In this document: one piece after another, positions 18,187-35,474 of the stretch
Layout: every line of letters begins with the position of its first letter
Position numbering within the stretch: position 1 is the first letter of the stretch
NCBI GenBank assembly: GCA_964541455.1
Contig: CAZIPS010000003.1
Location: forward strand, 2,663-66,662
Reading direction: 5' to 3'
Length of the DNA stretch: 64,000 nucleotides
Source: an uncultured Candidatus Saccharibacteria bacterium
GTDB taxonomy: Bacteria; Patescibacteriota; Minisyncoccia; Phycocordibacterales; JAKFXT01
Translations under genes and position numbers: made by a program
The notes under the pieces: model-generated
What the model was told of the DNA's origin: nothing
The model's database searches: none
What the model saw: the letters and a program-made list of their open reading frames with translations, nothing else

Positions 18187-18972
18187 ATGAAACCAAAAAA
18201 ACAATTAGGGCAAAATTTCCTTACCTCTTCTCAAGTAGTAGAGGATATTGTGCGTGCAGGAGATATTGGGAGCAATGATATTGTCCTTGAAATTGGCCCT
18301 GGAAAGGGATTTTTAACACAAAAACTCCTTGAAAAGGCAAAAAAAGTGATCGCCATTGAGAAAGACAGGGAGCTTATCCCATTTTTGCAAGAAAAATTTG
18401 CTTTTTTTATAGAAAATGGACAACTTGAGCTTGTTGAAGCTGACATCCTCCTCTATGACCCTGCCCTACACAGCCTAAAGGCACAAGGGTATAAGCTTAT
18501 TGCAAACATTCCATACTATATTACAGGGGAAATCCTCCAAAAATTCCTAGAAACCCCTCTTCACCCCTCACTTATGGTGCTTATGGTCCAAAAAGAGGTG
18601 GCGGCCCGCATTATAGCTACAAACAAGAAAGAAAGCCTTTTGTCTCTGAGTGTAAAAGCTTATGGCACGCCCTCTATAGTACGAAAAGTAGGAAAGGGGA
18701 GCTTTTACCCATCCCCGTCTGTTGATTCAGCGGTTATCAAAATAGCCACTATTTCTAAAAATTTCTTTGGAAAAGTAGGCGAGAAAGCCTTTTTTACCAC
18801 CCTAAAAACTGGTTTTTCTCACAAAAGAAAGTTTTTAATCAACAATCTAACTCCACTTGCTGAAAAAGTGGTTCTCGAAACACTTTTTGCCGATCTTGAG
18901 CTCCCACTCACTATCCGAGCTGAAGATGTGTCATTAGAAAACTGGAAGCAACTCACTTCTCACCTTTCTTGA
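18187..18972 (+). CDS. rsmA: 16S rRNA (adenine1518/1519-N6)-dimethyltransferase
   Basis: 261 aa beginning KKQLGQNFLTSSQVVEDIV..LEIGPGKGFLT, the KsgA/RsmA signature. Confidence 0.9.
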   Translation: MKPKKQLGQNFLTSSQVVEDIVRAGDIGSNDIVLEIGPGKGFLTQKLLEKAKKVIAIEKDRELIPFLQEKFAFFIENGQLELVEADILLYDPALHSLKAQGYKLIANIPYYITGEILQKFLETPLHPSLMVLMVQKEVAARIIATNKKESLLSLSVKAYGTPSIVRKVGKGSFYPSPSVDSAVIKIATISKNFFGKVGEKAFFTTLKTGFSHKRKFLINNLTPLAEKVVLETLFADLELPLTIRAEDVSLENWKQLTSHLS

Positions 18973-19063: not shown

Positions 19064-20128
19064 ATGGAAAGCTTTGCAAAATTTTTGCCGAGCCGGCAGT
19101 TTGGGGTTGTTATTGCCTCGATCTTTTTAGCCTGCGCATTAGTAGGTAGCGTGTTCTATCTCAAAAAAAATAAGGAACAGAAAAGTGACATTGCACTTTT
19201 AAATGGGCCGAGTATCGAAGCGGTAACTGATGCTACTAAAAATCTAAGTGATGATGTTGCTGATATCGATACTGACCATGATGGCCTTAAGGATTGGGAA
19301 GAAGTCCTATGGGAAACCGACCCTAAAAACCCCGACACCGATCATGATGGCACCCCTGATGGGGAAGAAGTAAGACTTGGGAGAAATCCTCTAGTAAAGG
19401 GACCTAACGACAGTCTCAAAGAGGTGAGTAAAAATATAAGTACTGCATCATCCGCCCCGATTGTACTCACCCCCACTGATATCGTGGCACGTGATTTTTT
19501 CTCAAAATATCTTGAGGCTAAGCAAACAGGAAAAGATATTGATGCCAAGACCCAAGAGGAAATCATTGCTTCTGTTATTTCACGCCAAGACCTCGTGCAG
19601 AGCGCCAAAGCATATAGCAAAGAACAGCTAACCATAAGTACTAAAAATGATGAGGCGTCACTAAGGGCATATGGCAACGCTATGGGGCTTATTTTTAAAA
19701 ACACTGCCACTTGGAAAGAAAGTGAGATAGACATCATGCAAGAAGCTCTTAACAAAAATGATGAAAAAAGACTTGAGGCACTGGATACTAACATTAATGG
19801 ATACCAATCTATTCTTAATCAAAGCCTAAAAGTGGTTGTACCAAGCAAAGCAGTTGATGTCCATCTCCGCTATATAAACGCTTATAGCAAAATCGTCACC
19901 GCACTTACTGCTATGAAAAATACATTTAAAGACCCCGTAAGTGCCCTTATCCTTCTTGGTAAATACCCAGATGCTATTACCGAACTCCACCAGTCTTTTA
20001 TCGACGCGAGAAGTTTTTTTACCCGAAACAATATTACCTTTGACCTAAAAACTGAAACAGGAATTTTCTTTGCTAATTTTGCTGATGCAGTCGACATCAA
20101 GACAAAGGAGAATGCTGGAACCCAATAA
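19064..20128 (+). CDS. Membrane-anchored protein with thrombospondin-type-3-like Ca-binding repeats (DTDHDG...DPKNPDTDHDGTPDGEE)
   Basis: 354 aa with an N-terminal TM helix and two DxDxDG calcium-binding-like repeats. The remainder is unrecognisable. First gene of the T4SS-like block. Confidence 0.5.
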   Translation: MESFAKFLPSRQFGVVIASIFLACALVGSVFYLKKNKEQKSDIALLNGPSIEAVTDATKNLSDDVADIDTDHDGLKDWEEVLWETDPKNPDTDHDGTPDGEEVRLGRNPLVKGPNDSLKEVSKNISTASSAPIVLTPTDIVARDFFSKYLEAKQTGKDIDAKTQEEIIASVISRQDLVQSAKAYSKEQLTISTKNDEASLRAYGNAMGLIFKNTATWKESEIDIMQEALNKNDEKRLEALDTNINGYQSILNQSLKVVVPSKAVDVHLRYINAYSKIVTALTAMKNTFKDPVSALILLGKYPDAITELHQSFIDARSFFTRNNITFDLKTETGIFFANFADAVDIKTKENAGTQ

Positions 20129-20133
20129 TCTAT

Positions 20134-21747
20134 ATGCTAGAACTTCTTTTTAAAATTAAAAAATCTTTTTACGCAAAAATTCTTGTATCTTTTCTTATTA
20201 TCGCCTTTTTCGCTCCCATGGCACTCCCACCAAAAGCAGATGCAGGGGGAATGGCAGTCTTCGATTCAATTGGTGCAGCTCTTAAAACCGCCGGTAATGC
20301 AATTTTGACTATTATAAGCACTATTTCAAATGCGATTATTGGTGCCGGTATCCAAGCTCTTGTTACTGCCAAATACATCTTAGGCCCCCTTGCCACAACA
20401 ATTGCGAAAATGATCCTGCGGGGTATTACGGCAAGTATTATCGCTTGGATAAGTAATGGGTTCCAAGGAAGCCCCTCCTTTATCCAAGATCCCAAACGAT
20501 TCTTCACTAATGTAGCTGATCAGGCAATCGGTGCAGTTCTACTATCAAATGAAGCAACTAAATGGATGTGTACCCCATTTGCAATCAATATAAAACGAGC
20601 CCTTATCTACAATCGCTCTTTCTATCAACGTTCTCAGTGTAGCCTCACGCAAGTCGTAAATAACTTCAAAGGCTTTGCAAGTGGACTTAATAACCAATTC
20701 GGCAGTCTTGGTGGTTGGACTGCGTGGAACACTATGACATACGAGCCACAAAATAATCCCTACGGAGCCTATGCCCTCTTTAATATGCAGGTTGATGTAC
20801 AAGTAACCGGCGCCATCAATACCCAAGCCCGCTTACTCGACTGGGGTAAAGGTTTTCTTTCCTGGAAAGACCCAACATGTGTCGAAAATGCTAAAAGAAA
20901 TTCCGACCTTGAGGGCTATAAAACAGGCGATGAAATCGTTCCCCTTGAAGAAAGTGAGGGCAATACCATTAGTCCAAACACTGACCCAAATACCTGCCCG
21001 ATTCTTACTCCAGGTGATGTTATTGCAAATCAAATAAACAAGACTATCGGAAGCGATGTTGATCAGCTTGTAGGTGCACAAGAGATCAATCAGATTATTA
21101 GTGCACTCCTTTACCAACTTGCAGTTAAAGCACTTGGTGGCTCTGGCCTTCTTGGACTTGGCGCTTCATACTCCGATCCTTACGGCACAAATGGAAGCTA
21201 TGCTCAACAACTTCTCGCAAATGATCAACAGGTATTCAATCAAACTCGCAGTGACTTAAACCAACAAATATACAACCGCATCACCACCGAAAACAACTAC
21301 TCTGCAACAAAAAACCAAACACTTTCTCTTATAGATCTTTCTGCTAATAAAGCGTTTTCAGTCCTTAATTGCTACTTTGCAACTTCTTCTACTCCACTTG
21401 GTATCAACAACAGCATGCGTGCTACTGATATAGCAGGAGCTTCAAGTTCACTTGCCTTTATAAACGGCTTCAAGCGTTCTATACAACGTGACGTCGACAT
21501 ATCAGATATAAACATCAGTAACCTCCAACGCCTTGTTGATGCCTCAAACGCCTTAGACTACAGCCACAGAGATACTCTGCAACAAATCTCATCACAATTC
21601 TCACAACTCATCACGCAAATCCACTCTGACGGCGATGTTATAAACGCCCAGTTTGAACGTGACCAGACTATACCTGACGCCATGAAAGCTCCTGATGCCG
21701 ACAATGACACTCGCCTTAATCGCTGTTACACCGAACCTATTAACTAG
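20134..21747 (+). CDS. Hypothetical exported protein (537 aa) in the T4SS-like cluster
   Basis: N-terminal hydrophobic anchor or signal, then a Cys-containing Gly/Ala-rich region. No recognisable domain. Confidence 0.45.
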   Translation: MLELLFKIKKSFYAKILVSFLIIAFFAPMALPPKADAGGMAVFDSIGAALKTAGNAILTIISTISNAIIGAGIQALVTAKYILGPLATTIAKMILRGITASIIAWISNGFQGSPSFIQDPKRFFTNVADQAIGAVLLSNEATKWMCTPFAINIKRALIYNRSFYQRSQCSLTQVVNNFKGFASGLNNQFGSLGGWTAWNTMTYEPQNNPYGAYALFNMQVDVQVTGAINTQARLLDWGKGFLSWKDPTCVENAKRNSDLEGYKTGDEIVPLEESEGNTISPNTDPNTCPILTPGDVIANQINKTIGSDVDQLVGAQEINQIISALLYQLAVKALGGSGLLGLGASYSDPYGTNGSYAQQLLANDQQVFNQTRSDLNQQIYNRITTENNYSATKNQTLSLIDLSANKAFSVLNCYFATSSTPLGINNSMRATDIAGASSSLAFINGFKRSIQRDVDISDINISNLQRLVDASNALDYSHRDTLQQISSQFSQLITQIHSDGDVINAQFERDQTIPDAMKAPDADNDTRLNRCYTEPIN

Positions 21748-21749
21748 CT

Positions 21750-24218
21750 ATGTTACGCACTGCAAAAAAAGCTCTTCTTACGTCCGTCTTTCTTGCAGGA
21801 GCTTTTTTGCCTTTTACTACTTTTGCGCAAACAATTAATGATAGTGATACTGGCGGGGGAGTAAGTGTTAGTGCACTCAAAAACACTTCTGCTCAAACCG
21901 TCACCGCGTCAGAAATACAACTGCAAGCAAGAGAGAATGCTCGTGACGCATCACTACAACAATCCCTTGGCAACGGGAACGTCACTGACCCAGGGGTAGC
22001 TGCTGCAGCTCCCTCTGGTACATTTTCTGCCCCAGGAACCGCTCCCTCGCTCTCTTCTTCGGGGGCCCAAGCAACTAAAGACCTCAACCTTGCTTCAGTT
22101 GACCTTTGTTCAATTAGCTTTACAGGAACCTTCCAACCACTCAACTGTCTCGGGTACGGACTTCTCAAAATAGGGGGGTGGGTAGCAACGGTAGGCGGTG
22201 TCTTTCTCAACCTCTCGATTGATTTTACTGTGCTTAAAATGTCTACCGTCATTAACGGCACTGGTGCTATTAATGCTGCTTGGAAAGTGTTCCGCGATCT
22301 TTCAAATATTTTCTTTATTTTTATCCTTATTTATATCGCTATAAGCACTATTATCGGGACCGCTGGAGGACAAACCAAAAAAATGCTGATCAATGTCATC
22401 ATTGTGGCACTTCTCATCAACTTCAGCATGTTTTTTACTAAAGTTGCAGTCGACACCTCAAATATTCTCACCATTCAGTTCTTCAACTCTATTAGCAAAG
22501 GAGACAATAGCTGGGACAACGGCCTCTCTTGGGTCTTTATGAATGCCTCGCGCCTCACTACCATCTACCAAGCGGGGAACACCATCGCCACAAGTCCAAA
22601 TGGCAAAGCGTTTCTTAGTTACAACTTTCTCATTGTTGGGATTATGGGGCTCGCCTTTGCCCTCGTGCTTGCTTTTGTGTTTATGGCGATTGCCATTATG
22701 TTTATTTCTCGTTTTGTCACTATTATTTTCCTTATTGTACTTTCACCGCTCGCTTTTATGGGCTTTGCGGTGAGCAAATTAAGTGGCAAATGGCATCAAT
22801 GGCTCTCTGTGCTCACAGAACAAATCTTCTTCGCTCCTGTTATGATGGCTATGCTTTGGACTGTTGCGGTTATTATAAATAGTGACGGCTTCCGTGCAGC
22901 AGTTGCCTTTTCTGACCCGGCCAATAACTTCGCCGACCTCTTCACCCTTTCTTCCGTTACAGGGTCTATATATATAGTCTTAAACTTTAGCCTCCTTGTT
23001 GCCCTTCTTATTGGTGGCCTCCTTATATCAAAGAACTTTAGTCATACAAGTGCGAACTTTGCAATGAAACTCGCAGGGGGGGCCTCTTTTGGGGCAGCGG
23101 CGTGGATTGGGCGCAAAACAGGAGGGTGGGCTGGAAACAAACTTGCCAAATCAGAACGCTTGCAGAAATTTGCAGCTAATAATCCTACTGTTGGTATGTT
23201 TGCACTTAAAGCGGTCAAGGGGGTTGCTTCTGCCAGCTTTGACGCTCGCAATATTCCCCACGCAAGCGACTATCTCGGCAAGGGACCTGGGACAGGGGGT
23301 TATGTTGGCGAACTTGAAGCTCAAGTAAAGAAACGTCAAGAGGATGCAAAACTTCTCAAAGACCTCAAGCTATATCAAGACTCGAAAACTGAAGGGGAGG
23401 CAAAGGCTCACAAAGAAACAGTTGAGGAGAAAGACAAAAAAGTGGTTGAGCTTAACAAGCAGATGGCTAACTTTATTGCCGCTGGCAACAACCTTAACGA
23501 TACACGCTACAAGGAGTTTGAGAGGGAGAAAGCTGAAGCGGTTAAGGCACGTGATGAAGCTAAGAAAAAACTTGAGACCCTCAATAAGGACCAGACCAAG
23601 ACCCAAACAGGGGAGCAGACCTATGCTAAGAATCTTACTAAGGGCACCATTGCTGCTATCATGACTCGCCTTGCTGCAGAGCGTGAAAAATCTCAAGAGA
23701 AGATTGAGGAATCATATACCAAGGACCGTCAAAAGAAAGACAGCGAATGGGCCAAAGAATTTAATCTTAAGGAGATTAACCGACAAATTGCTTCTCTTGA
23801 TGCAGAAATCGAGTCTCTTGGGAGCTCGGTCTTGAATGTCACCGAAGAGGTAAAAAACTGGAATGAGCAGATTGCTAAAAATAACAAAGAAATTGAAAAA
23901 ATAACTCTAGACCAAAAAAATAATCCAAATGTTGATATCATCGCTTCAAACAAAAGAAGAAAGATTATTGCGGAGGAAAACGGAAAAATACAGGAAAGCA
24001 TCAATGCAGTAAAAGCTAATGAGTCAACTATTGCCGAACAAAAGAAAATTCGACTCATAGCAGAAAGAGAAAAGCTTATTAATCAACGAAAAGAGATTCA
24101 AAATAAAAAGGATAGAGATGCTCTTCTAAAAACACTTGTTGACGCAACAAAACCGGAAGAGGCTCAAGGAGAAGAAAAGAAGGGTGAGGATAAGCCAAAA
24201 AAGGATGATGCACACTAA
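21750..24218 (+). CDS. VirB6/TrbL-like polytopic membrane protein with a C-terminal Lys/Glu-rich coiled-coil extension
   Basis: 822 aa with a signal peptide, at least 6 TM helices in a TrbL/VirB6-like arrangement (LIVGIMGLAFALVLAFVFMAIAIMFISRFVTIIFLIVLSPLAFMGF) and a long charged coiled-coil tail. Confidence 0.55.
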   Translation: MLRTAKKALLTSVFLAGAFLPFTTFAQTINDSDTGGGVSVSALKNTSAQTVTASEIQLQARENARDASLQQSLGNGNVTDPGVAAAAPSGTFSAPGTAPSLSSSGAQATKDLNLASVDLCSISFTGTFQPLNCLGYGLLKIGGWVATVGGVFLNLSIDFTVLKMSTVINGTGAINAAWKVFRDLSNIFFIFILIYIAISTIIGTAGGQTKKMLINVIIVALLINFSMFFTKVAVDTSNILTIQFFNSISKGDNSWDNGLSWVFMNASRLTTIYQAGNTIATSPNGKAFLSYNFLIVGIMGLAFALVLAFVFMAIAIMFISRFVTIIFLIVLSPLAFMGFAVSKLSGKWHQWLSVLTEQIFFAPVMMAMLWTVAVIINSDGFRAAVAFSDPANNFADLFTLSSVTGSIYIVLNFSLLVALLIGGLLISKNFSHTSANFAMKLAGGASFGAAAWIGRKTGGWAGNKLAKSERLQKFAANNPTVGMFALKAVKGVASASFDARNIPHASDYLGKGPGTGGYVGELEAQVKKRQEDAKLLKDLKLYQDSKTEGEAKAHKETVEEKDKKVVELNKQMANFIAAGNNLNDTRYKEFEREKAEAVKARDEAKKKLETLNKDQTKTQTGEQTYAKNLTKGTIAAIMTRLAAEREKSQEKIEESYTKDRQKKDSEWAKEFNLKEINRQIASLDAEIESLGSSVLNVTEEVKNWNEQIAKNNKEIEKITLDQKNNPNVDIIASNKRRKIIAEENGKIQESINAVKANESTIAEQKKIRLIAEREKLINQRKEIQNKKDRDALLKTLVDATKPEEAQGEEKKGEDKPKKDDAH

Positions 24219-24233
24219 TATATAATAGAGAAT

Positions 24234-25397
24234 ATGGAAGACACGAGTGTTCAACAGAAATTTGAAAAACTGCCGGCAGTTATTCGCGAAGCGATTACTT
24301 CTGTTGATTTTGCAGAAAAACTTCAAAACATAGGCAAGGCAAACAGCCTCCACCTCGATGAACTTGACGCGCTTTTTGAAGAAGTGGGATTTGTGATGCT
24401 TGGGGACACTCGCACGCAAGATTTTGGAGCTAAAATAAGCGAACGTCTCTCGCTTCGCCCAGATCAAGTTGCTCCTATAGTTAAAAGTGTTGATGAGGAA
24501 ATATTCCGCCCGATCCGCACTGCGCTCATCAGCCTCCACGACAATGAACCTCGTCGCATTACCGACGTCCCACTCCCTGCAGCAAGTGCACCTTCATATG
24601 TTCCCCCAGTTCCACAAAAAAACTCTTTACCCACAACCCCCGAAAGTAATCTTGCGCCAAAACCAATAACCGTTAAGGAGGAGTTGTCAGCTCCAACCAT
24701 ACACCCTATATACAATGATAAAAGTATAGAAACTCAAATACCAAGTTCCCCACAGACCCTAGGGGATGGAGTAGTGGTTACTCCAGAAATAAGCGCCCTA
24801 AACGAAGAAACGCCAACTCGCGAAAACCTTCTTAATGCTATTGAAGGGGAGAAAGAAATGGACCCCGCTCTCCTTACCCCACATCGCCAACTTGAATCCC
24901 AAGATCCACGCACCTATCTCATAGACAAAGAAGAATTTCTGAAGAAAATCACTGAACCAAGCAGTGGCTCCACCCCCGCAACACTTACCCCCAAAAAACG
25001 TTCGTTAGCCGAAGAAGCGGTGTTAGTAGCAAAGCGAAAAGTAGACCCAACTGCTCTAAATATGCAGAGCATTATAGCCAAAACACCGAAACCAACTACA
25101 GAATCAGCTCCTATTACTACTATCCCTCCTGTCCCCGCCACTCCTCCCACAATTACGTTGGATATTCCTCGCACTGAAGAACAGGCGTCTGTGCAAACAC
25201 CTCCCGAAGCAATCTATACACTTCCAAAAGAAATAGCCCCCACCCAACCCATCACCCTTGAAGCAAAACAGAAACTTACCTCCATGGTTCAGGTTCCTCG
25301 CGTCACAAGTAGAGTGAGCGCCCCGCTCACCGCTACTTCAACTGTCACTACAGAAACTACAGGAAGTAGGGTAGACCCATATCGCGAACCTATATAA
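24234..25397 (+). CDS. Hypothetical Pro/Thr-rich protein (387 aa) in the T4SS-like cluster
   Basis: Low-complexity P/T/S-rich C-terminal two thirds. The N-terminal 100 aa are globular and unrecognisable. Confidence 0.4.
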   Translation: MEDTSVQQKFEKLPAVIREAITSVDFAEKLQNIGKANSLHLDELDALFEEVGFVMLGDTRTQDFGAKISERLSLRPDQVAPIVKSVDEEIFRPIRTALISLHDNEPRRITDVPLPAASAPSYVPPVPQKNSLPTTPESNLAPKPITVKEELSAPTIHPIYNDKSIETQIPSSPQTLGDGVVVTPEISALNEETPTRENLLNAIEGEKEMDPALLTPHRQLESQDPRTYLIDKEEFLKKITEPSSGSTPATLTPKKRSLAEEAVLVAKRKVDPTALNMQSIIAKTPKPTTESAPITTIPPVPATPPTITLDIPRTEEQASVQTPPEAIYTLPKEIAPTQPITLEAKQKLTSMVQVPRVTSRVSAPLTATSTVTTETTGSRVDPYREPI

Positions 25398-25529
25398 AGC
25401 GTAAGCTTTGTGTTGTTTATACCACCCACCCTTAATCAACACGACATATCCTCTTATCTGCGCGACAAAGAGCGCAATCTCTTATATTATTAGAGATACC
25501 AAGCGCATTGTCGTTTCAGTATTTTTTAT

Positions 25530-26051
25530 ATGCAATTCCAAGTTCCTCAATTTATTGAAGTAGAAGACAAGCTTTTTGGTCCTCTTACCCTTAAACAATT
25601 CATTTATCTTGCTGGGGGAATAGGTGTTTCGGCGATCTTCTACCTTGTTATTCCTTACCACTTTATTGCCATAGTTCTTGCGGTTCCTTTCGTTGTTTTT
25701 GCGATTGCCTTAGCTTTCTACCGCATTAACAGTAAACCATTTGTTGAGGTGCTTGAGGCAGCACTTTCCTACTACTTTAAAAACAAGCTTTATATATGGA
25801 AGAAATCCGACAAGAAAATTGAGGATCGTCCAAAAGAAGAAGTATCTGAACCCTCTCTCGATACACTTTTTGCCCCACGCCTCTCTGAAAGCAAGCTCAA
25901 AGATCTCGCGTGGAGCCTTGATGTTACTGATAAAGTAATAAACAAAGAGGTTCAAAGGGGAGGGGGGTCCCGCATTACGTATAACGAAGACGAGCGCGAG
26001 AAAGTTGAGTTCCAGAAAAACTACGAAATTGGAGCTAAGGGGCACCTATAG
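25530..26051 (+). CDS. PrgI/VirB3-like small membrane protein
   Basis: 173 aa with two adjacent N-terminal TM helices (LAGGIGVSAIFYLVIPYHFIAIVLAVPFVVFAIALAFY) directly upstream of the VirB4 ATPase, matching typical PrgI-family topology and placement. Confidence 0.5.
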   Translation: MQFQVPQFIEVEDKLFGPLTLKQFIYLAGGIGVSAIFYLVIPYHFIAIVLAVPFVVFAIALAFYRINSKPFVEVLEAALSYYFKNKLYIWKKSDKKIEDRPKEEVSEPSLDTLFAPRLSESKLKDLAWSLDVTDKVINKEVQRGGGSRITYNEDEREKVEFQKNYEIGAKGHL

Positions 26052-26056
26052 AACAT

Positions 26057-26692
26057 ATGGCTACTGAACAAACATCAGCAACACAAGAATTCGTCCCTAT
26101 CAAAGAGGTACGTGACGGCATTGTCCTCCTTAAAGACGGAGGTCTGCGTGCAATTCTTCTAACCTCTTCTATTAACTTCGCCCTCAAATCACAGGACGAG
26201 CAAAATTCCGTTATTTTCCAATTCCAAAACTTCCTTAACTCTTTAGACTTTCCTGTAGAAATCTTCATTCAATCAAGGAAACTCGATATTCGCCCCTACA
26301 TTGCTCTCCTCGAAGACCGCTATCGAGATCAAGTTAATGATCTACTTAAAATACAGACTCGTGAGTACATCGAGTTCATAAAAAGCTTTACTGAAAGTGC
26401 TAATATCATGACTAAAAGCTTCTTTATTATTGTCCCCTACAATCCAGCAAGCCTTACCGCTGAATCAGTTGGTGGGTTCTTTAGTAAGAAAAAAGATGAA
26501 GACAAAACAAAGGATGCGGCTGCACGCTTCGAAGAAAACCGCAGCCAACTCGAGCAACGCATTGCTGTTATCGAACAAGGACTTATACGTACAGGAGTTC
26601 GTGTCGTACAATTAGGTACTGAAGAAATTATTGAACTTTACTACAAGATCTTTAACCCTGGAGAGCAGGACAAGCCAATTAAGTTGCCATAA
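26057..26692 (+). CDS. Putative N-terminal segment of the VirB4-like ATPase (split gene), or a separate T4SS accessory protein
   Basis: 211 aa ending at a TAA 2 nt before the ATG of the Walker-A-containing ORF, which is in a different frame. Combined length of about 817 aa matches full-length VirB4/TrbE. Confidence 0.4.
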   Translation: MATEQTSATQEFVPIKEVRDGIVLLKDGGLRAILLTSSINFALKSQDEQNSVIFQFQNFLNSLDFPVEIFIQSRKLDIRPYIALLEDRYRDQVNDLLKIQTREYIEFIKSFTESANIMTKSFFIIVPYNPASLTAESVGGFFSKKKDEDKTKDAAARFEENRSQLEQRIAVIEQGLIRTGVRVVQLGTEEIIELYYKIFNPGEQDKPIKLP

Positions 26693-26694
26693 TT

Positions 26695-28515
26695 ATGGGT
26701 GTTTTCGATTTCCTTATTACGAATAAGAAAAAAGAAGCAGGGAATGCGCTCACCGCTATTTTGCCGCGAGACATCTATGAATCTGGTGTTTTGGAACTTA
26801 AAGACATTATTGCCCCCTCTGCACTTAAAATCACGCCCAAAGAGCTCAATTTGGGCGAGAAAATTATTCGTACCTTTTTTGTTATCTCTTATCCTCGTTT
26901 TCTTTCGGAAAGTTGGTTTGCGCCGATTATTAACCTCGACAAGGTGTTTGACGCTTCTATTTTTATTCACCCTATTGAAACCGCTCGCATTTTAAGGCAA
27001 TTCCAGAAAAAAGTAGCGGAGGTACAAAGCCAAATCCACGAGAGAGAGGAGAAGGGGTTAGTGCGTGATCCCGTGCTTGATACCGCCTACCAAGACCTTG
27101 AACAGCTTCGTGACGGCCTTCAGCAAGCACAAGAACGTATTTTTGATGTTGGGCTCTATATATCTATTTACGGTGATTCTGATGCCGAACTTGATAAGGT
27201 AGAGTCTGAAATTAAATCTATCCTCGAATCAAAGTTGGTGTATATAAAACCAGCCCTCTTTCAACAAGAACAAGGGTTTAAAAGCGTTATTCCTCTTGGA
27301 AATGATGAGTTAGCAGTTCATTCAAAACTTAACTCTTCGCCACTTTCAAGTGTTTTTCCTTTCATCTCTTTTGACCTCACTTCAGACAAGGGAATTCTTT
27401 ATGGCATCAACCGACACAATGCAAGTTTGGTACTTTTTGACCGCTTCTCTCTTGAAAATTACAACTCTGTCGTCTTTGCGAAGTCTGGATCTGGTAAGTC
27501 CTACACCACCAAACTCGAGATCCTCCGTACCCTTATGTTTGACACTGAAGTGATTGTTATTGATCCCGAGCGCGAATACGAATATTTAGCCGAAGCCACC
27601 GGCGGACGCTATTTTAATGTTTCGCTTAATTCTGAACACCACATTAACCCTTTTGATCTTCCCATCCCACGCGAAGACGAATCCCCAGCTGATATTCTTC
27701 GCAGCAACATTGTAAACCTCGTAGGGCTTTTCCGTATCATGATGGGGGGGCTCACTCCCGAAGAAGATGCCATTATTGACCGCGCAATTACTGAAACCTA
27801 TGCCCTCAAAGACATTACCCCTGAATCAGACTTTACTGCTATCGAACCCCCACTTATGGCTGACTTTGAACTTGTGCTTTCGGGCATGGAAGGAGGGGAT
27901 TCCTTGGCACAACGACTTACTAAATACACTAAGGGAACATGGGCTGGCTTTATCAACAAGCCGACAAACGTCGACATTAATAAAAAGTTTGTTGTGTTTT
28001 CTGTGCGTGATATGGAGGATGAGCTTAAACCTGTTGCCATGTATATCATTACGCACTTTATTTGGAATGCTATACGCAAAGAAATTCGAAAACGTCTCCT
28101 TGTTATCGATGAAGCATGGTGGATGATGAAATCAGATGATACTGCCTCTTTCCTCTATAGTCTTGTAAAACGTGGTCGTAAATACTTCCTTGGAGTAGCG
28201 ACAATTACCCAAGACGTCGATGACTTCCTTAAAAGCCAGTATGGGCTCCCCATTATCACCAACTCATCGCTTCAACTTCTCCTTAAACAATCTCCATCAT
28301 CAATCGATAATGTTCAAAAGATATTTAACCTTACCGAAGAAGAGAAATATCTACTCCTTGAGTCAGACGTAGGGGAGGGGATTTTCTTCGCAGGACTAAA
28401 ACACGTGGCGATTAAGATCATTGCCTCATACACCGAGGACCAGATTATTACCTCTGACCCTTCTCAAGTGCTTTCGATCAGAAAAGCCAAAAATGATTTG
28501 CGCCTTGCTTCTTAA
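26695..28515 (+). CDS. VirB4/TrbE/CagE-family type IV secretion ATPase (C-terminal NTPase portion)
   Basis: 606 aa with Walker A (VVFAKSGSGKSYTTK) and a Walker B-like motif (LLVIDEAWWMM). Confidence 0.8.
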   Translation: MGVFDFLITNKKKEAGNALTAILPRDIYESGVLELKDIIAPSALKITPKELNLGEKIIRTFFVISYPRFLSESWFAPIINLDKVFDASIFIHPIETARILRQFQKKVAEVQSQIHEREEKGLVRDPVLDTAYQDLEQLRDGLQQAQERIFDVGLYISIYGDSDAELDKVESEIKSILESKLVYIKPALFQQEQGFKSVIPLGNDELAVHSKLNSSPLSSVFPFISFDLTSDKGILYGINRHNASLVLFDRFSLENYNSVVFAKSGSGKSYTTKLEILRTLMFDTEVIVIDPEREYEYLAEATGGRYFNVSLNSEHHINPFDLPIPREDESPADILRSNIVNLVGLFRIMMGGLTPEEDAIIDRAITETYALKDITPESDFTAIEPPLMADFELVLSGMEGGDSLAQRLTKYTKGTWAGFINKPTNVDINKKFVVFSVRDMEDELKPVAMYIITHFIWNAIRKEIRKRLLVIDEAWWMMKSDDTASFLYSLVKRGRKYFLGVATITQDVDDFLKSQYGLPIITNSSLQLLLKQSPSSIDNVQKIFNLTEEEKYLLLESDVGEGIFFAGLKHVAIKIIASYTEDQIITSDPSQVLSIRKAKNDLRLAS

Positions 28516-28520
28516 TATTC

Positions 28521-29192
28521 ATGCCTCCCGAGCTTAAAGAAAATCGAATACCCACTCATACTGCGGGGTTTATGCTCGCCGTAGCCGCTTTTTTTGACCT
28601 TTTACAAATATTTTTTAACCTTATTCTAATCGGTTTTCTCATAAACTGGACGATTACCCTTATTTCATTTTTAACCTTTTTTGTTTGGTTTAAACTTTAT
28701 GGTGTAAACCTAGGCGATAGCGCTAAGAAAATAGCGCTTTGGCTCACCGACTATGCCTTCGATATTTTTAGTGGAGGGATTTTCCCTTCGATTTTTATTA
28801 GCACCCTTATCACTATTCTTATAGTTAAGTCAGACGATGCGCTTCGTAACCAAGGTATTGACCTCAACCTCTCAACCTCTGCCTCTTATCGCAAAAAAGT
28901 GGCGGAAAACAGGAGGGCATACCAAGCATCACTACAAAGTAACGAAGAGGAGAGTGCAGAGGGTGGGGAAGAGTCTCCCGAGCGTTTCAAAGAAACATTA
29001 TCTCGTGTTTCCCGTAGTGGAGCAGTCCCAGGGAACGAGAAAGGGGCTGCTACCACACGGGTACCCCTCACCTCAAGCGCCCCCACAGTTATCCCAAACA
29101 ATAATCAAAAAACAGAAAATAATAGCGGAATTCTTGGTAGAATAAATAGAACTTCAAACAAAAGCAGTGAACCCTATGTTAAAGCCGTTTAA
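28521..29192 (+). CDS. Hypothetical polytopic membrane protein (223 aa) in the T4SS-like cluster
   Basis: At least 3 TM helices followed by a charged C-terminal tail. Overlaps the next gene by about 26 nt. Confidence 0.45.
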   Translation: MPPELKENRIPTHTAGFMLAVAAFFDLLQIFFNLILIGFLINWTITLISFLTFFVWFKLYGVNLGDSAKKIALWLTDYAFDIFSGGIFPSIFISTLITILIVKSDDALRNQGIDLNLSTSASYRKKVAENRRAYQASLQSNEEESAEGGEESPERFKETLSRVSRSGAVPGNEKGAATTRVPLTSSAPTVIPNNNQKTENNSGILGRINRTSNKSSEPYVKAV

Positions 29193-30195
29193 TATATACC
29201 GCTCTCTTAAAAAAAGCCTTGTTTTTTTAGCGCTTTTTATGCCTTTTGTTTTTGCACGCGCCGAAGCTTCTCTTACTCCCTATGCTGAGGGAGTAAGTAC
29301 TGTTGTTACCCCCCAAAATCCTGGCCCTAATACCCTTATAACTATCCAACTGCAAAGTTCATTGGTGAACCTTGAGGCCTCGACTGTTATTTGGAGCGTT
29401 AACGGTAAGGTTATTCAATCGGGTAAAGATAGTCGCAGCTTTTCCCTTCGCCTTGGCGGTATAGGGAGTAAGAGTGTTGTTGATATCTATATCAAAAGTG
29501 ATAATTTTGGCACTATCAGCAAAACTCTAACTTTTGCCCCAACAAGTGTTGAACTCCTTTACCAAGCCTCTTCTTATACCCCACCCTTCTACAAAGGAAA
29601 GGCGCTCATCCCCTCGGAAGGCGTTGTTACCCTCTACGCACTTCCAAACTTTAAAACAAGTTCTGGATCAATTCCTCAAACAGCAAGTCTTGTTTTTACA
29701 TGGAAAAAGGATGGGGTTGTTGACGGAAATAATTCTGGACTTGGAAAAAATAGCTATCGCTATGTTAATGGAAGACTACCAGAAGATGGTCCTTCAATTG
29801 AAGTCTCTGTTGTTGATCCTAAGAGTAACTTACAAGGCTATGCCGCCTTTGCTGCCTCAACAGTTAACCCTGAAGTTGTTTTTTACGAGAATAACCCCAT
29901 TTTAGGAGTTAACCTCAATCAAAGTATTCAGAAGGACTACGCCCTTACCAAGCAAGAACTTTCTCTTATTGCCTACCCTTATTACTTTGGTACCAAAAAT
30001 AGAAATGCTCTAGGGCTTTCCTATACTTGGAATATCAACGATAACCCGGTTGCAAACAGTGCATCTGACAAGGGAACATTAACCGTGCGTAGTCCTGGGG
30101 GGAAGGGGGTTGCAAACATTTCACTTGGTGTTGAGAATAAACTAAGACTCCTTCAAACAGCGTCAAGTATTCTTTCTATTACCTACGGTCAATAA
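29167..30195 (+). CDS. Hypothetical secreted protein (342 aa), probably beta-rich
   Basis: Signal peptide (LVFLALFMPFVFARAEAS) and an Ig- or beta-sandwich-like composition. Confidence 0.45.
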   Translation: MNPMLKPFNIYRSLKKSLVFLALFMPFVFARAEASLTPYAEGVSTVVTPQNPGPNTLITIQLQSSLVNLEASTVIWSVNGKVIQSGKDSRSFSLRLGGIGSKSVVDIYIKSDNFGTISKTLTFAPTSVELLYQASSYTPPFYKGKALIPSEGVVTLYALPNFKTSSGSIPQTASLVFTWKKDGVVDGNNSGLGKNSYRYVNGRLPEDGPSIEVSVVDPKSNLQGYAAFAASTVNPEVVFYENNPILGVNLNQSIQKDYALTKQELSLIAYPYYFGTKNRNALGLSYTWNINDNPVANSASDKGTLTVRSPGGKGVANISLGVENKLRLLQTASSILSITYGQ

Positions 30196-30199
30196 TTTT

Positions 30200-30832
30200 A
30201 TGAAAAAATTTCACCCACATCTTCCACGCCCTTCTGTGTTAGCGATATTTTTCGTTTCTTTTGTTCCTTTTGCTTCACTTTTTGCTGCAACTGGCGACTA
30301 CCAATTACTTGCCCCCCTTCCTTCTTTTGGTTCTTCATACAATCCAGGACTTTTTGTAAACTACGTCCAAACTTTTATTAAACTTTCAATCACTCTTTCA
30401 GCTATTTTAGCGGTTGCTTTTATCACTATAGGTGGCTTTCAGTGGATGGGGGGAGATTCAATGCAAATGAAGTCTGATGGTAGGAAAAAGATAGAAGATG
30501 CTGTACTTGGCCTTGTTATATTAGGAGCTTCTTTTCTTATTCTTAATACCATTAACCCTGCGCTTCTCAGCTTTAAACTAGAGGTTCCTACTCTCATTAC
30601 TGGAGACACGTCCAACCAAACACAAACAAGTTACCAAGTTGATGATCTAACTAATGTTGGTCAGCAAATTCAAAACCAAATGAATCAGAATCCAAACGCT
30701 TCACCAACAGTTCAAATACGAAGTGGGACAGCTGATGAACAAAGTAATATCAGTGCTCAATGTAAGGCAAATAAACCAGGGTCAATCGGTGCCATAAAAG
30801 ACCCTACAGGGAAGTTTTATACTTGTATGTAA
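30200..30832 (+). CDS. VirB2/TrbC-like pilin subunit candidate
   Basis: 210 aa with a signal peptide, then two hydrophobic helices (IKLSITLSAILAVAFITIGGFQWMGG ... AVLGLVILGASFLILNTI) typical of T4SS pilins, and a C-terminal extension. Confidence 0.5.
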   Translation: MKKFHPHLPRPSVLAIFFVSFVPFASLFAATGDYQLLAPLPSFGSSYNPGLFVNYVQTFIKLSITLSAILAVAFITIGGFQWMGGDSMQMKSDGRKKIEDAVLGLVILGASFLILNTINPALLSFKLEVPTLITGDTSNQTQTSYQVDDLTNVGQQIQNQMNQNPNASPTVQIRSGTADEQSNISAQCKANKPGSIGAIKDPTGKFYTCM

Positions 30833-30835
30833 TAT

Positions 30836-32116
30836 ATGTCTAAAACTACAGCTATTAGTATCGTTATTGGTTTCATTCTCCTTTTGGGTGGGGGGTTAGC
30901 TTATTGGTACTACACTATAGGTCCTAAAAATCCAAGTCAACAAAACCCCCAAACAAACACCGGGGGCAATAACCTTTTCCCGTTTGGGAACACTAATCAA
31001 TCAAATAATGGCACCACTTCAACAAGCACCAATCAAACTGTAGTGAGTAAAGAACCCTCTCCCCAAGTTCGTAAGGTGTCAGCTACCCCAATTGCCGGCT
31101 TTTCTCCTCTAAATGATAAAACGTTAGGGGCGTCAGTCCGCTATATGGAAGTTGAAACAGGCAACATCTATGAAGCCCCTCTCCAAGTACTTTCAACTCG
31201 ACGCATCAGTAACACCACTATTCCAAAAGTACGAAGTGTCCTTTGGCTTCCGCAAGCGAGAGCTTTTATTGCTCAATACCTTGGTGGCGATGATGAGACG
31301 ATCCAGAGTTTTTACGGTGATATTAACCCTCCACAGAACGAAGGACAGGAAGGTAACGTAACAGGGAAGTTTATGGATGATGGCATTACCGCACTTGCCT
31401 CACTTACCCCGTTTTCTGCGAGCACTACCCTTAAAAATCCTGGTAAAATTTTCTATCTTAAAAACACCACAAACGGTGCGGAGGGTTTCAGTGCCTTACA
31501 AAATGGTAGTAAACCAACTTCCGTATTTAACTCTCCACTTTCTGAATGGCTTCTTCTTAACAGTGGGGGAGACGCCCTTTTCCTTCAAACTAAGTCCTCC
31601 GCACTTGCTTCCTCGTATCTTTTTAGTCTAAACCCTTCAACAGGCGCTTTGAGTAAAGTGCTTGGAAACATTGTTGGCCTCTCTTCATTACCAAACCAAA
31701 AGGGGGATATGGTGCTTTATTCCGAAACACTAAACAAGAAACCTCTACTTCACCTCTACAATGTAGGTAAAAATACTTTCCAAACCATTCCTCTTAATAC
31801 CTTTGCTGACAAATGCGCATGGCTTGAAAGTACTACCACTAAAGCAACAAACTCCTCACGCATCTATTGTGGCGTTCCTTCTTTAATGCTTTCACAAGTC
31901 CTATACCCTGATAGTTGGTACCAAGGAAAGACAACTTTTAATGATGACATTTGGGAGATCAACCCAACAACACTTGAGTTAAACAAACTTGTTCCACTTG
32001 TTGATAGTGGGTCATACCTCGATGTTTGGAACCCTTCCTTAAGTAGCGATAGCGCCTATTTTATCTTTATAAACAAAAGGGATTTAACTTTGTGGAGTAT
32101 TAAGCTAAGGGGGTAG
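30836..32116 (+). CDS. Hypothetical exported protein with an N-terminal TM anchor (426 aa), last gene of the T4SS-like block
   Basis: N-terminal TM helix, a Gln/Asn/Thr-rich linker and a large extracellular domain. Confidence 0.45.
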   Translation: MSKTTAISIVIGFILLLGGGLAYWYYTIGPKNPSQQNPQTNTGGNNLFPFGNTNQSNNGTTSTSTNQTVVSKEPSPQVRKVSATPIAGFSPLNDKTLGASVRYMEVETGNIYEAPLQVLSTRRISNTTIPKVRSVLWLPQARAFIAQYLGGDDETIQSFYGDINPPQNEGQEGNVTGKFMDDGITALASLTPFSASTTLKNPGKIFYLKNTTNGAEGFSALQNGSKPTSVFNSPLSEWLLLNSGGDALFLQTKSSALASSYLFSLNPSTGALSKVLGNIVGLSSLPNQKGDMVLYSETLNKKPLLHLYNVGKNTFQTIPLNTFADKCAWLESTTTKATNSSRIYCGVPSLMLSQVLYPDSWYQGKTTFNDDIWEINPTTLELNKLVPLVDSGSYLDVWNPSLSSDSAYFIFINKRDLTLWSIKLRG

Positions 32117-32576
32117 GGGGTACACTTTCTTTTTTCCCATACACAATAACTACTCTTCTTGAGGGACCTTCTCCTCGTGATTCTGTGTAGAGTTGTGGGT
32201 GGCCTACAAAAAAATTGTGCACAAGAAGTCTTTCGTATGGGCCCATAGGCTCCATCTCTACTTCCTGTTTAAACGCAAGCACCTGCTCTCCTAGTAGTTT
32301 TGCGCTTTCTTTAATTCTTTCTTCTTCTTTTTCACGGTACTTATTAACATCAATACTTATACTTTCCTCAATCCCGGCTTTCTCTGCCATTCTTCGCACA
32401 AGGTGATTTATAGCTGAAAGTGTTGCCCCATTAGCCCCGATTAGTCTTTCTGGATCGCTACTTTTAATAGCAACCTTAAGAGAAGCTTCGGTTGCCACAA
32501 CATCTCCCACTTCAGTATCGAAGGGAATATACGAGAGAAACTTTTTTACTATATCTTTGAGTTTCTCTTCTTTCAT
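32100..32576 (-). CDS. jag: Jag/SpoIIIJ-associated RNA-binding protein (KH plus R3H domains)
   Basis: 158 aa with GANGATLSAINHLV (KH-like) and LLVHNFF..HPQLYTESRGEGPSRRVVI (R3H). Conserved position downstream of yidC. Confidence 0.8.
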   Translation of the reverse strand: MKEEKLKDIVKKFLSYIPFDTEVGDVVATEASLKVAIKSSDPERLIGANGATLSAINHLVRRMAEKAGIEESISIDVNKYREKEEERIKESAKLLGEQVLAFKQEVEMEPMGPYERLLVHNFFVGHPQLYTESRGEGPSRRVVIVYGKKESVPPTPLA

Positions 32577-32578
32577 AT

Positions 32579-33298
32579 CTATACTGCCTTTTTATGCTTA
32601 CGTAATGCCAATTCCTGTCCGATGGTAAAAATATTACTGACACAGAAATAGAGTGCTACCACCGAAGAAAGGCTGTGACTGATAAAAATAATAATCAAGG
32701 GAAATATGTACTTCATTTGAAGATTCATACTCCGCGCAAGGTCGTTTTTTAAAGAAACCTCGTTTGTTTGTGGAAGGGGAGGCATAGCAAGTTGCGCTTG
32801 GATAAACTGTGCTCCGCCAGCAATGAGGGCGAGTGTCCAGCTCTTTTCTGCCATATGGAACATAAGAAATTCCATAGAAACAGTGCCTGTTGGGAGATGT
32901 ATAAAACTATACAGATCAGCGGTGTGTATTGTTGGAAACCCTCCTTTATAGAAAATAAAGTAAAGCGCAAAAATAACCGGGAGTTGAATAAAAAGCGCAA
33001 GGATGCTTGAAAACGGGTTCACTCCCTCATCTTTATATACTTGCATAGTTGCAACAGCTGCAGCTTGCTTGTCGTTTTTGTACTTTTCGCGTATTGCTTC
33101 CAGTTTTGGCTCTATATCCCTCATTTTCATTTGAGTGATAAGTGCTTTTTTAGTTAGAGGAAAAAGGGCGAATTTAACTAGAAGGGTTGTTGCAATAACC
33201 GCAAGGGCTACTGAGTGGTTGGGGAGTATAGTAATTAAAAAAACAGCCACATTATAGATCGGCTGATAAAAAACTGTATGAAAAAATCCCCCGCTCAT
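32579..33298 (-). CDS. yidC: Membrane protein insertase YidC/Oxa1 (short form)
   Basis: 239 aa, five TM segments, LLVKFALFPLTKK and VNPFSSILALFIQLPVIFALYFIF motifs. Conserved rnpA-yidC-jag synteny. Confidence 0.9.
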   Translation of the reverse strand: MSGGFFHTVFYQPIYNVAVFLITILPNHSVALAVIATTLLVKFALFPLTKKALITQMKMRDIEPKLEAIREKYKNDKQAAAVATMQVYKDEGVNPFSSILALFIQLPVIFALYFIFYKGGFPTIHTADLYSFIHLPTGTVSMEFLMFHMAEKSWTLALIAGGAQFIQAQLAMPPLPQTNEVSLKNDLARSMNLQMKYIFPLIIIFISHSLSSVVALYFCVSNIFTIGQELALRKHKKAV

Positions 33299-33322
33299 AA
33301 GGGATATTCTACCCTACTTTAG

Positions 33323-33664
33323 TTAGTTTAAAAGCCTTGCTTTAGCAAAAAGCATTTTTAGCTCGTTTTCTAACGCTTTATAGGGTATTTCAAGACCCTC
33401 TTTTTTTACAAAGACAATACCGGCTACGCTAGCCCTAAGTGAGGGGTAGAAACTTTGAATTATAGTGTATACACGCCTTTTCACTGTATTCCTTTTTGGT
33501 TTATTTCTAGTCACTTTTGCTGGGACCACTACTGAAAAACGGCTTATTTCGTGGGTTTTTAAGGGGTTTACCCTTAAAGAGAGGGTGGGGGAGGAAACAA
33601 AAAAACCCTCTCCAAAGTGTTTGGTGAAGGACTTTTTGTCTAGGCGCCTTGTTTTAGGCAACAT
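33323..33664 (-). CDS. rnpA: Ribonuclease P protein component
   Basis: 113 aa, basic, with the RNR-like motif (KVTRNKPKRNTVKRRV). Located downstream of rpmH. Confidence 0.85.
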   Translation of the reverse strand: MLPKTRRLDKKSFTKHFGEGFFVSSPTLSLRVNPLKTHEISRFSVVVPAKVTRNKPKRNTVKRRVYTIIQSFYPSLRASVAGIVFVKKEGLEIPYKALENELKMLFAKARLLN

Positions 33665-33670
33665 ACGTCT

Positions 33671-33805
33671 TTAGACACTTAGCTTCTTTCTTCCTTGGGC
33701 TCGGCGGCGGGCAAGCACTTTCTTACCCCCAGCAGTTGCACTACGGACCAAAAAACCATGTGTGGTGGCTCTTTTCTTCTTTTTTGGTTGATATGTTTTT
33801 GACAT
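33671..33805 (-). CDS. rpmH: 50S ribosomal protein L34
   Basis: 44-aa ORF absent from the ORF track. Translates to [44 protein letters not shown], a canonical L34 immediately upstream of rnpA. Confidence 0.9.
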
Positions 33806-33974
33806 TGGGGTGTAGTATAGCCTATTCTCGCTCTTTTGGAAATAGCTTCGCTTTTTAAAAAGGTTTAATTACTTACCCACATGTTATACCCATATTTATC
33901 ACCATAACCCTCCTTTTCTGGTAAGTGTTGCAGTTTTCTAAGAAGAGTATAATAGGGGACACTAATATATTCTT

Positions 33975-35315: not shown

Positions 35316-35474
35316 GTATGTGGAAAATATGTTGGTAATAACTGAAAAAGGTGAGGGAAAGTATGTAAGTTATCCAGTGATTAAAAAAAGCTAGAGGTAT
35401 ATTCCACAAAAAAGAATGGTAGTTATAAAAAAATATAAGATAAAAAACCTATATACCACCTACTATAATAACCT

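Follow-up and report, generated by a model that had tools for sequence, protein, structure and literature searches.

A Patescibacteria-type type IV secretion locus with separate TrsD and VirB4 genes near dnaA

A 13-kb block of genes on contig CAZIPS010000003.1 (assembly GCA_964541455.1) resembles a type IV secretion system (T4SS) or conjugative pilus, and its VirB4 ATPase is encoded in two pieces. Is it a conjugation apparatus, the decaying remnant of one, or a machine that serves another purpose? We analyzed the block in a 64-kb window (the whole stretch of 64,000 nucleotides, to which all coordinates refer) and in related genomes. We consider it very probable that the block is a chromosomal, vertically inherited and non-conjugative T4SS of the Patescibacteria type, located in a Paceibacteria/Parcubacteria-type genome. 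It derives from the conjugation machinery of monoderm bacteria (MPF_FATA). This system has already been published between 2023 and 2025 (TrsD plus VirB4, PrgI, VirB6, a VirB2-like pilin, no relaxase, a position near dnaA), and the locus fits every listed feature of the published Paceibacteria arrangement. The first-pass annotation, made from the sequence alone, had suggested a minimal non-conjugative T4SS-like cluster of a candidate phyla radiation genome; hidden Markov model (HMM) matches, synteny, structure and the literature support this view (PMC12102498; PMC10633639).

The block consists of 11 open reading frames (ORFs, g1 to g11) on the plus strand at 19064-32116. The intergenic spacing is -26 to +5 nucleotides (nt), except for one 132-nt gap (25397-25530) before g5. 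The colinear same-strand block had been described with these limits, and they coincide exactly with ORF boundaries. The ORFs and the basis of their assignment are as follows.

19064..20128, +, g1, 354 amino acids (aa), membrane-anchored protein with TSP3 repeats and a helical C-terminal domain (PF18884)
20134..21747, +, g2, 537 aa, Cys-containing protein, exported or anchored, from a large family that lacks annotation (profile search, synteny)
21750..24218, +, g3, 822 aa, probable VirB6/TrbL-like polytopic membrane protein with a signal peptide (orthologue matches, AF2 model, Foldseek)
24234..25397, +, g4, 387 aa, soluble protein with a Pro/Thr-rich linker and a C-terminal DPYREPI (alignment, synteny)
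25530..26051, +, g5, 173 aa, PrgI/VirB3-like protein with two transmembrane segments (PF12666)
26057..26692, +, g6, 211 aa, TrsD/TraC-like, free-standing VirB4 N-terminal part (NCBIfam, PF26593 TraC-like)
26695..28515, +, g7, 606 aa, VirB4 ATPase of the MPF_FATA/CD1110 type without the N-terminal domain (NF045971, PF19044)
28521..29192, +, g8, 223 aa, small membrane protein with three transmembrane segments and a disordered tail (hydropathy scan, position)
29167..30195, +, g9, 342 aa (gene callers start at 29176, giving 339 aa), secreted protein, probably Ig-like (orthologue matches, PDB profile)
30200..30832, +, g10, 210 aa, VirB2/TrbC-like pilin-type protein (PF18895 below threshold, orthologues, hhalign)
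30836..32116, +, g11, 426 aa, N-terminally anchored extracellular protein, probably a beta-propeller (PDB profile, orthologue matches)

The two-piece VirB4 motor and the membrane core

A VirB4 ATPase with a Walker A motif, split over two genes, had been called in the first-pass annotation, and both parts of this call hold. g7 exceeds the cut-off of the CD1110 VirB4 model NF045971 (E 7.8e-111, 371.6 vs 325 bits) and aligns to positions 181-733 of its 752; it also matches PF19044 (E 4.8e-27). Walker A (GSGKS, residue 265) and Walker B (DEAW, residue 472) are both intact. g6 aligns to N-terminal positions only, in four VirB4 models of NCBIfam, among them VirB4_plasma (2.3e-10), VirB4_CagE (positions 4-178) and CD1110 (positions 2-119). 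In the Mbov_0397 model (894 positions) g6 covers 101-233 and g7 covers 292-893; the two proteins match consecutive parts of VirB4 models. The precomputed annotation of g6 is PF26593 (TraC-like). Its score against the staphylococcal TrsD model NF041427 (4.8e-7, 29.8 bits, cut-off 200) indicates a distant relative and not an equivalog.

The g6 stop codon (TAA, 26690-26692) is followed by the g7 ATG at 26695, in another frame and with 2 nt between them. Two ORFs so placed could be read as a frameshift, an assembly error or a pseudogene in a decaying cluster, an origin that the comparative data already refute and to which we attach practically no probability. Six independent metagenome samples yielded contigs with identical proteins and the same gene calls. 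Related loci that hold both genes keep them separate in 78/78 cases (g6 209-272 aa, g7 578-703 aa), mostly with gaps of -4 to +16 nt and with all three relative frames present. A word-index search scored at least 8000 stand-alone homologues of g6, all with E<=0.001, and the best 120 are all 208-221 aa long with 64-100% identity; thousands of stand-alone homologues (64-82% identity) and the intact Walker motifs speak against a broken gene. The same two-gene arrangement is reported for TrsD/TrsE of staphylococcal pGO1 (PMC12102498), and separate TrsD-like and VirB4 proteins are encoded on a Bacillota megaplasmid of Pontibacillus. Judged by sequence comparison, the split is genuine and is the known TrsD plus VirB4 arrangement, not a disruption. 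Because stand-alone homologues of about 210 aa exist in thousands and all 78 loci keep the genes separate, the split is, on the same comparison, ancestral and universal.

g5 lies directly upstream of this pair. It had been called PrgI-like, and it scores well above the PF12666 cut-off (E 4.9e-11, 43.5 vs 27 bits), with predicted transmembrane segments at residues 24-42 and 45-63 (hydropathy scan).

g3 had been described as a VirB6/TrbL-like channel protein with a long coiled-coil tail. It has a signal peptide, a Ser/Ala-rich N-terminal region, a polytopic part and a K/E-rich helical tail of about 320 aa, 53% charged or polar, which matches coiled coils only. In a Pfam scan of 100 orthologue sequences of mixed families, 3 of 25 g3 orthologues matched TrbL (PF04610, best 6e-5), and 19 of the 120 listed g3 homologues (E 1e-61 to 1e-34 to g3) carry PF04610 and/or PF19590. 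A sequence-profile search of the PDB gave nothing useful for g3. An AF2 model of residues 101-520 reached a mean confidence (pLDDT) of 82 and a pTM of 0.75. Its highest-probability PDB matches in Foldseek were the TrwI/VirB6 chains of R388 (8rt9_F, 8rtd_L) and Legionella DotA; the PDB matches including DotA have E values of 0.03-0.3 and TM-scores of at most 0.46. A g3 profile aligned with a 779-aa protein of a Bacillota T4SS module (hhalign 91.8%). The gene is placed near PrgI/VirB3 (g5) and VirB4 (g6/g7), with g4 between g3 and g5. On this sequence and model evidence we consider g3 probably, although not proven to be, VirB6-like.

g10 is the sole pilin-type copy among the window ORFs; there is no pilin array. 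Alignment and hydropathy scan reveal a signal peptide, the conserved motif [DE]Y.LLAPLP and a hairpin of two transmembrane segments, followed by a C-terminal extension of 90 aa with a Cys pair. The T4SS_pilin family (PF18895) was matched by 33/35 g10 orthologues (best 2.4e-10), TrbC/VirB2 by three. A profile of the g10 family aligned with a Bacillota 'Mbov_0395 family pilin-like conjugal transfer protein' (hhalign 96.4%), and the PDB sequence-profile search yielded nothing useful here either.

Some relatives of g10 are longer. A C-terminal domain with the pattern H..H..D...HxH is found in about 13-14 of the 35 orthologues; the window copy is without it. The profile of this domain matches the Hedgehog N-terminal domain (LAS zinc-peptidase fold, E ~1e-3), and one orthologue matches Peptidase_M15_4. 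Examples of such pilin-peptidase fusions, by locus and position, are L043:13287-14162, L029:13190-14104, L019:12286-13131 and L062:14161-15108. In some lineages these fusions may be the source of the missing VirB1 function.

Chromosomal setting and conservation

Upstream of the block lie uvrD, a small ORF and ksgA, which ends 91 nt from the block start. Downstream, Pfam matches identify khpB/jag, yidC and rnpA in convergent orientation, then dnaA and dnaN. The two boundaries are listed below.

18187..18972, +, ksgA/rsmA, upstream boundary, a housekeeping gene outside the system (PF00398, 1.1e-49; conserved neighbour in related loci)
32100..35490, strands as given, downstream boundary and replication-origin region: khpB/jag (-), yidC (-), rnpA (-), dnaA (+) and a DnaA-box cluster at 35224-35490 (Pfam, GC skew, DnaA boxes)

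The cumulative GC skew has its minimum at about 30-34 kb of the window. Four DnaA-box-like sites (TTATCCAC[T/A], at most one mismatch) are clustered at 35224-35490, at or after the end of dnaA, and three of the four are in the dnaA-dnaN gap; the whole window has 25 such matches vs 14.5 expected. The GC content falls to 0.33-0.37 at 34-38 kb. From these sequence signals oriC is likely at this cluster, which would place the end of the block about 3 kb from the replication origin. A scan for sigma-70-like promoters found 19 sites, fewer than in shuffled sequences (27.4 +/- 5.6), and therefore allows no statement on operon structure.

For comparison we used loci (L007-L086) of the best 80 of 587 g7 relatives, found by a pattern scan with one genome per species. 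These best 80 are 79-89% identical to g7, and g7 groups by identity with the Patescibacteria VirB4 proteins, compared with 33% to the closest Bacillota plasmid VirB4 examined. The best relatives come from metagenome-assembled genomes of the Parcubacteria/Paceibacteria type (Zambryskibacteria, Taylorbacteria, Campbellbacteria, Nomurabacteria, Kaiserbacteria). A comparison with the T4SS clusters of Saccharibacteria had been suggested earlier; the system is of the same kind, but the nearest genomes are Paceibacteria/Parcubacteria-type and not Saccharibacteria. In loci long enough to include the flanks, the order uvrD-ksgA-[g1..g11]-(khpB)-yidC-rnpA-dnaA-dnaN is common to about 80 species-level genomes.

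The median identities to the window proteins are as follows.

VirB4 (g7), 81%
TrsD (g6), 64%
DnaA, 62%
UvrD, 54%
PrgI (g5), 51% (across 76 loci)
KsgA, 49%
DnaN, 44%
Exported and membrane accessory proteins, about 30%

The contrast between VirB4 and DnaA is biased, the loci having been chosen as the best VirB4 matches, which inflates the VirB4 value. As far as sequence comparison goes, the T4SS locus is a core, vertically inherited one, in which the cytoplasmic motor evolves slowly and the surface parts evolve fast.

Since the gene order is kept in about 80 species-level genomes, the block is a vertically inherited core locus and not a mobile element. A mobile-element origin was rejected on this synteny, on the GC content of the block (0.41-0.44, the same as its flanks) and on the absence of an integrase or tRNA at its borders, the only recombinase (712-1629) being 17 kb off. 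These results also bear on the idea that the block is a conjugative system or the remnant of an integrative and conjugative element (ICE), with its relaxase and coupling protein lost or located elsewhere. VirB4, TrsD and PrgI are indeed homologous to conjugative MPF_FATA parts, and genes for the type IV coupling protein (T4CP) are often distant from virB4 (PMC12102498). Against this stand the same chromosomal slot between housekeeping genes in about 80 species, the uniform GC content, the borders free of integrase and tRNA, the strong purifying selection on VirB4 and the rarity of relaxases, reported in only 103/3035 Patescibacteria genomes (PMC12102498). We regard this conjugative reading as very improbable. 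The first-pass annotation had listed no relaxase, VirD4 or VirB11, and a Pfam scan of the window, covering ORFs of 246 aa or more, likewise found no relaxase, T4CP or VirB11 among them. The window contains no second P-loop ATPase of the VirB4/T4CP kind, and none of its ORFs outside the block is similar to a block family.

Accessory proteins and the remainder of the window

Six accessory proteins of the block are lineage-specific. Four of them are predicted from sequence to be extracellular (a Ca-binding repeat protein, a Cys-rich protein, an Ig-like protein and a beta-propeller); the other two are a small membrane protein and a soluble protein.

g1 was expected to be a TSP3-repeat membrane protein, and it matches PF18884 above the cut-off (E 2.1e-7, 31.1 vs 25 bits) with a single N-terminal transmembrane segment at residues 15-33 (hydropathy scan). 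A TSP3_bac match is found in 15 of its orthologues, and in the PDB the family profile hits DxDxDG Ca-binding loops only.

g2 has no match in Pfam or NCBIfam, and its family is without a Pfam model. That family is large, with 6073 cluster representatives (50% identity) at E<=1e-3 and 3887 at E<=1e-30. It carries the motif W.NSGFQG.P.F and four conserved Cys, and the protein occupies the same position in 52 related loci. An AF2 model built from an alignment of 29 word-index homologues was poor (pLDDT 64) outside a C-terminal helical bundle (residues 356-532). Assignment of g2 as VirB5, VirB8 or VirB1 was tried and not adopted, as the model was poor and Foldseek returned generic helical bundles only; g2 was left unassigned.

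g4 had been noted as Pro/Thr-rich, in agreement with a P+T+S content of 30.7%. The protein lacks both transmembrane segments and a signal peptide; its N-terminal part, about 100 aa, forms a conserved domain, after which come the variable Pro/Thr-rich linker and the C-terminal DPYRE(P)I, in which D381, Y383 and E385 are invariant in the alignment. Each of 61 related loci has exactly one ORF that ends in DPYR[ED], and its place is always between the VirB6-like gene and PrgI (for example L008:6948-7811). No match to g4 was found in Pfam, by PDB profile search or in the literature. Relationship of its N-terminal domain to DUF5663, present in the ORF at 15044-15349, was dismissed (BLASTP E = 13).

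g8 has transmembrane segments at residues 19-37, 44-62 and 84-102. It matched no family in Pfam, NCBIfam or the orthologue scan. An ORF with at least two transmembrane segments lies directly 3' of VirB4 in 46/69 loci; the position of g8 is conserved and its sequence is not.

g9 has a signal-like N-terminus and is present in 79/86 loci by tblastn. Its orthologues match BiPBP_C (5), Ig_3 (3) and PKD_3 (1), and a search of the PDB with its profile gave weak matches to Ig-like chains (Hoc, NAR; E 0.005-0.013). We assigned it as probably composed of tandem Ig-like beta-sandwich domains. g11, present in 57-63 related loci, is probably a TolB/PD40-like beta-propeller: the top four PDB matches of its profile are all TolB (best E 1.2e-3), and its orthologues match DPPIV_N, PD40 and DUF5050.

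Elsewhere in the window, a LysM plus M23 peptidase is encoded 8 kb upstream of the block (10330-11343, -) and might take the place of the VirB1-like hydrolase that the block lacks; an Amidase_3 protein is found at 53844-54986. A 555-aa T2SSE-family protein with an MshEN domain (43636-45303, -) is a PilB-type pilus ATPase, and at 60643-62841 (+) a type IV pilus (T4P) locus holds PilM with two small ORFs behind it. In Saccharibacteria, T4P is reported to be the other essential envelope machine. A ComM-like Mg-chelatase gene is located at 8728-10275. At 11610-15349 (+), upstream of uvrD, a 1143-aa ORF without significant Pfam match precedes a 101-aa DUF5663 protein, and neither is conserved beside the T4SS in related loci. 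Two further ORFs lack a Pfam match, at 6932-8293 (+, 453 aa) and 17458-18138 (+, 226 aa). The latter, between uvrD and ksgA, is absent from related loci except for the identical contig.

Function and relationship to known systems

What such a block does has been studied in relatives. In the saccharibacterium Southlakia epibionticum, Wang et al. (2023) found that epibiotic growth requires an unusual T4SS (SEML1_0006-0019) whose pilins are essential and which has neither coupling protein nor relaxase (PMC10633639). Quinonero-Coronel et al. (2025) detected VirB4 in 2417/3035 Patescibacteria genomes; 2425 VirB4 proteins form one monophyletic clade nested in MPF_FATA, and TrsD is the most abundant component associated with them (PMC12102498). 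The same survey places PrgI/VirB3, VirB6 and VirB2-like pilins, including PF18895, near virB4, and in Paceibacteria it finds the T4SS genes close to dnaA, dnaN, rnpA and ksgA. In Southlakia, competence depends on T4P and ComEC, and deletion of comEC abolishes competence while the cells remain viable, whereas the T4SS is indispensable (PMC12857230, citing Wang 2023). The T4SS must therefore be essential for something other than ComEC-dependent DNA uptake.

This bears directly on the possibility that the block is a natural-competence or DNA-uptake machine comparable to H. pylori ComB or archaeal Ced. The window does contain the ComM-like gene (8728-10275) and T4P genes, and in the ABY1 class T4SS loci are reported with comF, recG and radA (PMC12102498). 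Besides the Southlakia result, however, the genes next to the block include none for ComEC, ComEA or ComF, an accessory competence function would lead one to expect a far less conserved VirB4, and the CedB model matches the block VirB4 far below equivalog level (1.1e-9, 37.5 bits, cut-off 700, over 75 residues of the P-loop region). DNA uptake as the purpose of the system thus appears improbable. The first-pass annotation had proposed DNA uptake or host attachment rather than conjugation; the absence of conjugation parts in 64 kb agrees with the latter part, but DNA uptake as the essential role is disfavored in the one relative examined genetically (PMC12857230). The T4SS reading preferred here can also be given a fixed direction, with the T4SS and its pilus as an import conduit for host macromolecules or metabolites (RNA, nucleotides, lipids). 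Patescibacteria do not synthesize nucleotides, amino acids or lipids themselves (PMC10633639), and a 2025 FEMS review speculates that the pilus/T4SS is a conduit for signals or uptake (PMC12857230). A 2026 preprint describes tubular structures between a cultivated relative and its host and feeding on host RNA, and links VirB4 to macromolecule transfer (bioRxiv 10.64898/2026.06.21.733656), a link that is suggestive by the preprint's own wording. The window lacks a T4CP, the usual receptor of export substrates, and T4SS-derived importers exist, the partial CedB match being one pointer to them. Yet nothing in the sequence fixes a direction, that match is confined to the P-loop region, and the block encodes neither a nuclease nor a transporter. 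We consider import possible but on balance unlikely. A more specific form, in which the two-piece VirB4 pulls host macromolecules (e.g., RNA) or lipids through a VirB2-like tube and the lineage-specific proteins are adaptations to this task, is more doubtful still. If it were true, the DPYREPI protein would be a cytoplasmic adaptor or plug, the adaptations would include the exported family of about 6000 clusters, the Ig-like protein and the beta-propeller, and the peptidase fused to the pilin in sister genomes would cut the host wall.

Several results weigh against the reading of the block as a non-conjugative T4SS. The pilin-type protein of the window itself scores below the PF18895 cut-off (E 2.5e-4, 21.5 vs 26.6 bits), and its 90-aa extension (orthologues reach about 290 aa) may not fit a canonical VirB2 filament. 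For g3, the window protein has no match in Pfam or NCBIfam and thus falls short of any curated VirB6/TrbL threshold; the similarity of its model to TrwI/VirB6 is weak (probability 0.99, E 0.03-0.1, TM-score 0.37-0.46), and tblastn of its membrane domain found no match in 72,556 plasmids. The VirB6-like and pilin calls rest on orthologue-level and structural evidence, the window proteins being sub-threshold. The earlier pilin call keeps the support of 33 orthologues, topology and hhalign but is not carried by the window protein alone, and the channel call is backed by some orthologues, a weak structural match and, for the tail, coiled-coil matches, but by no curated HMM match of the window protein itself. 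No block protein or orthologue matched a VirB1-like hydrolase or VirB8 family, although a VirB8-like fold could escape such detection, structure models having been made for g2 and g3 only. The reading is based on 64 kb, and a T4CP or relaxase could be encoded elsewhere in the genome; VirD4 homologues are reported to lie far from virB4 in many Patescibacteria genomes (PMC12102498). All functional evidence comes from Saccharimonadia and none from Paceibacteria, and the selection bias in the VirB4 identities has been mentioned above.

In R388, VirB4 docks on VirB3 and VirB6 and energizes pilin extraction and substrate passage. In the T4SS proposed here, TrsD (g6) would act as a detached N-terminal domain that tethers the VirB4 hexamer to the VirB3/PrgI plus VirB6-like channel at the cytoplasmic membrane, and ATP hydrolysis would drive extraction and polymerization of the pilin-type protein and/or passage of a substrate through the VirB6 channel. 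g10 may be polymerized into an extracellular filament or may anchor one. The exported accessory proteins g1, g2, g9 and g11 would build a wall-spanning or host-contact part, and g4 would act in the cytoplasm. Such a machine would presumably serve contact-dependent exchange with the host cell and not plasmid transfer.

The system class is near-universal in a phylum that holds a large share of bacterial diversity, and it is essential for epibiotic growth in the one species tested. The locus adds no new principle. It is a clean and compact Paceibacteria example, with one pilin gene, 11 genes and fixed neighbors. New here, as far as the available parts of the published surveys extend, are g4, the g2 family, the Ig-like and beta-propeller wall proteins and the fusions of pilin and LAS peptidase; the Bacillota counterpart described below is a further modest addition. 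The newly named candidate parts are concrete targets for interaction modeling and genetics.

Among known systems, the diderm R388/pKM101 machines (MPF_T) share the VirB3, VirB4 and VirB2 roles, and TrwI/VirB6 is the best structural match of g3, with the weak similarity given above (TM-score at most 0.46); they differ in having VirB5, VirB7-10, VirB11 and VirD4. The T4SS of Mycoplasma ICEs is likewise monoderm, with a small VirB2-like protein (Mbov_0395) beside VirB4 (Mbov_0397), but it is self-transmissible and its VirB4 is a single chain; the Mbov_0397 model scores 269.5 here vs an equivalog cut-off of 590. Enterococcal pCF10 (Prg/Pcf) shares the order VirB6-like, PrgI, VirB4 and the PrgI family (g5). 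It has PrgJ as a single full-length VirB4 and no pilin, and we found in this locus no counterparts of its adhesin PrgB, hydrolase PrgK, VirB8-like PrgL, T4CP and relaxase. Among conjugative prototypes, only the staphylococcal pGO1/pSK41 Trs system encodes the N-terminal region of VirB4 as a protein of its own, TrsD, beside VirB4. The plasmid pGO1, of this MPF_FATA subclass (TrsC, TrsD, TrsE), also carries a relaxase, oriT, a T4CP and the VirB1-like TrsG, and it has no VirB2-like pilin.

The same core order as in the block is found on the megaplasmid of Pontibacillus sp. ALD_SL1 (NZ_CP062975.1, locus L087, 351.8-361.4 kb). This module encodes in turn a pilin-like protein (Mbov_0395 family), a small protein, a 779-aa polytopic protein, a 116-aa protein, a 274-aa TrsD-like protein and a 621-aa VirB4. 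The Pontibacillus VirB4 and g7 share 33% identity over the full length; the pilin and VirB6-like proteins of the module are linked to the block by the profile matches given above. Identity is low, and the module resides on a plasmid, has a 1050-aa DD-metalloendopeptidase after it and lacks g1, g2, g4, g9 and g11. Plasmid records matching g6 number 77, of which 67 are predicted to be non-mobilizable.

The closest known systems are those of the Patescibacteria clade. This locus has one pilin-type gene vs arrays of 2-11 in Saccharimonadia and Microgenomatia, and it lacks the peptidase/lysozyme gene that lies directly downstream of virB4 in Southlakia. g1, g2, g4, g8, g9 and g11 are not named in the available parts of PMC12102498 or PMC10633639. 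Shared with the clade are the MPF_FATA-type VirB4 with an adjacent free-standing TrsD, PrgI/VirB3, a probable VirB6-like protein and a VirB2-like pilin, the lack of a relaxase or T4CP nearby, and a chromosomal, origin-proximal location with ksgA, rnpA, dnaA and dnaN as neighbors.

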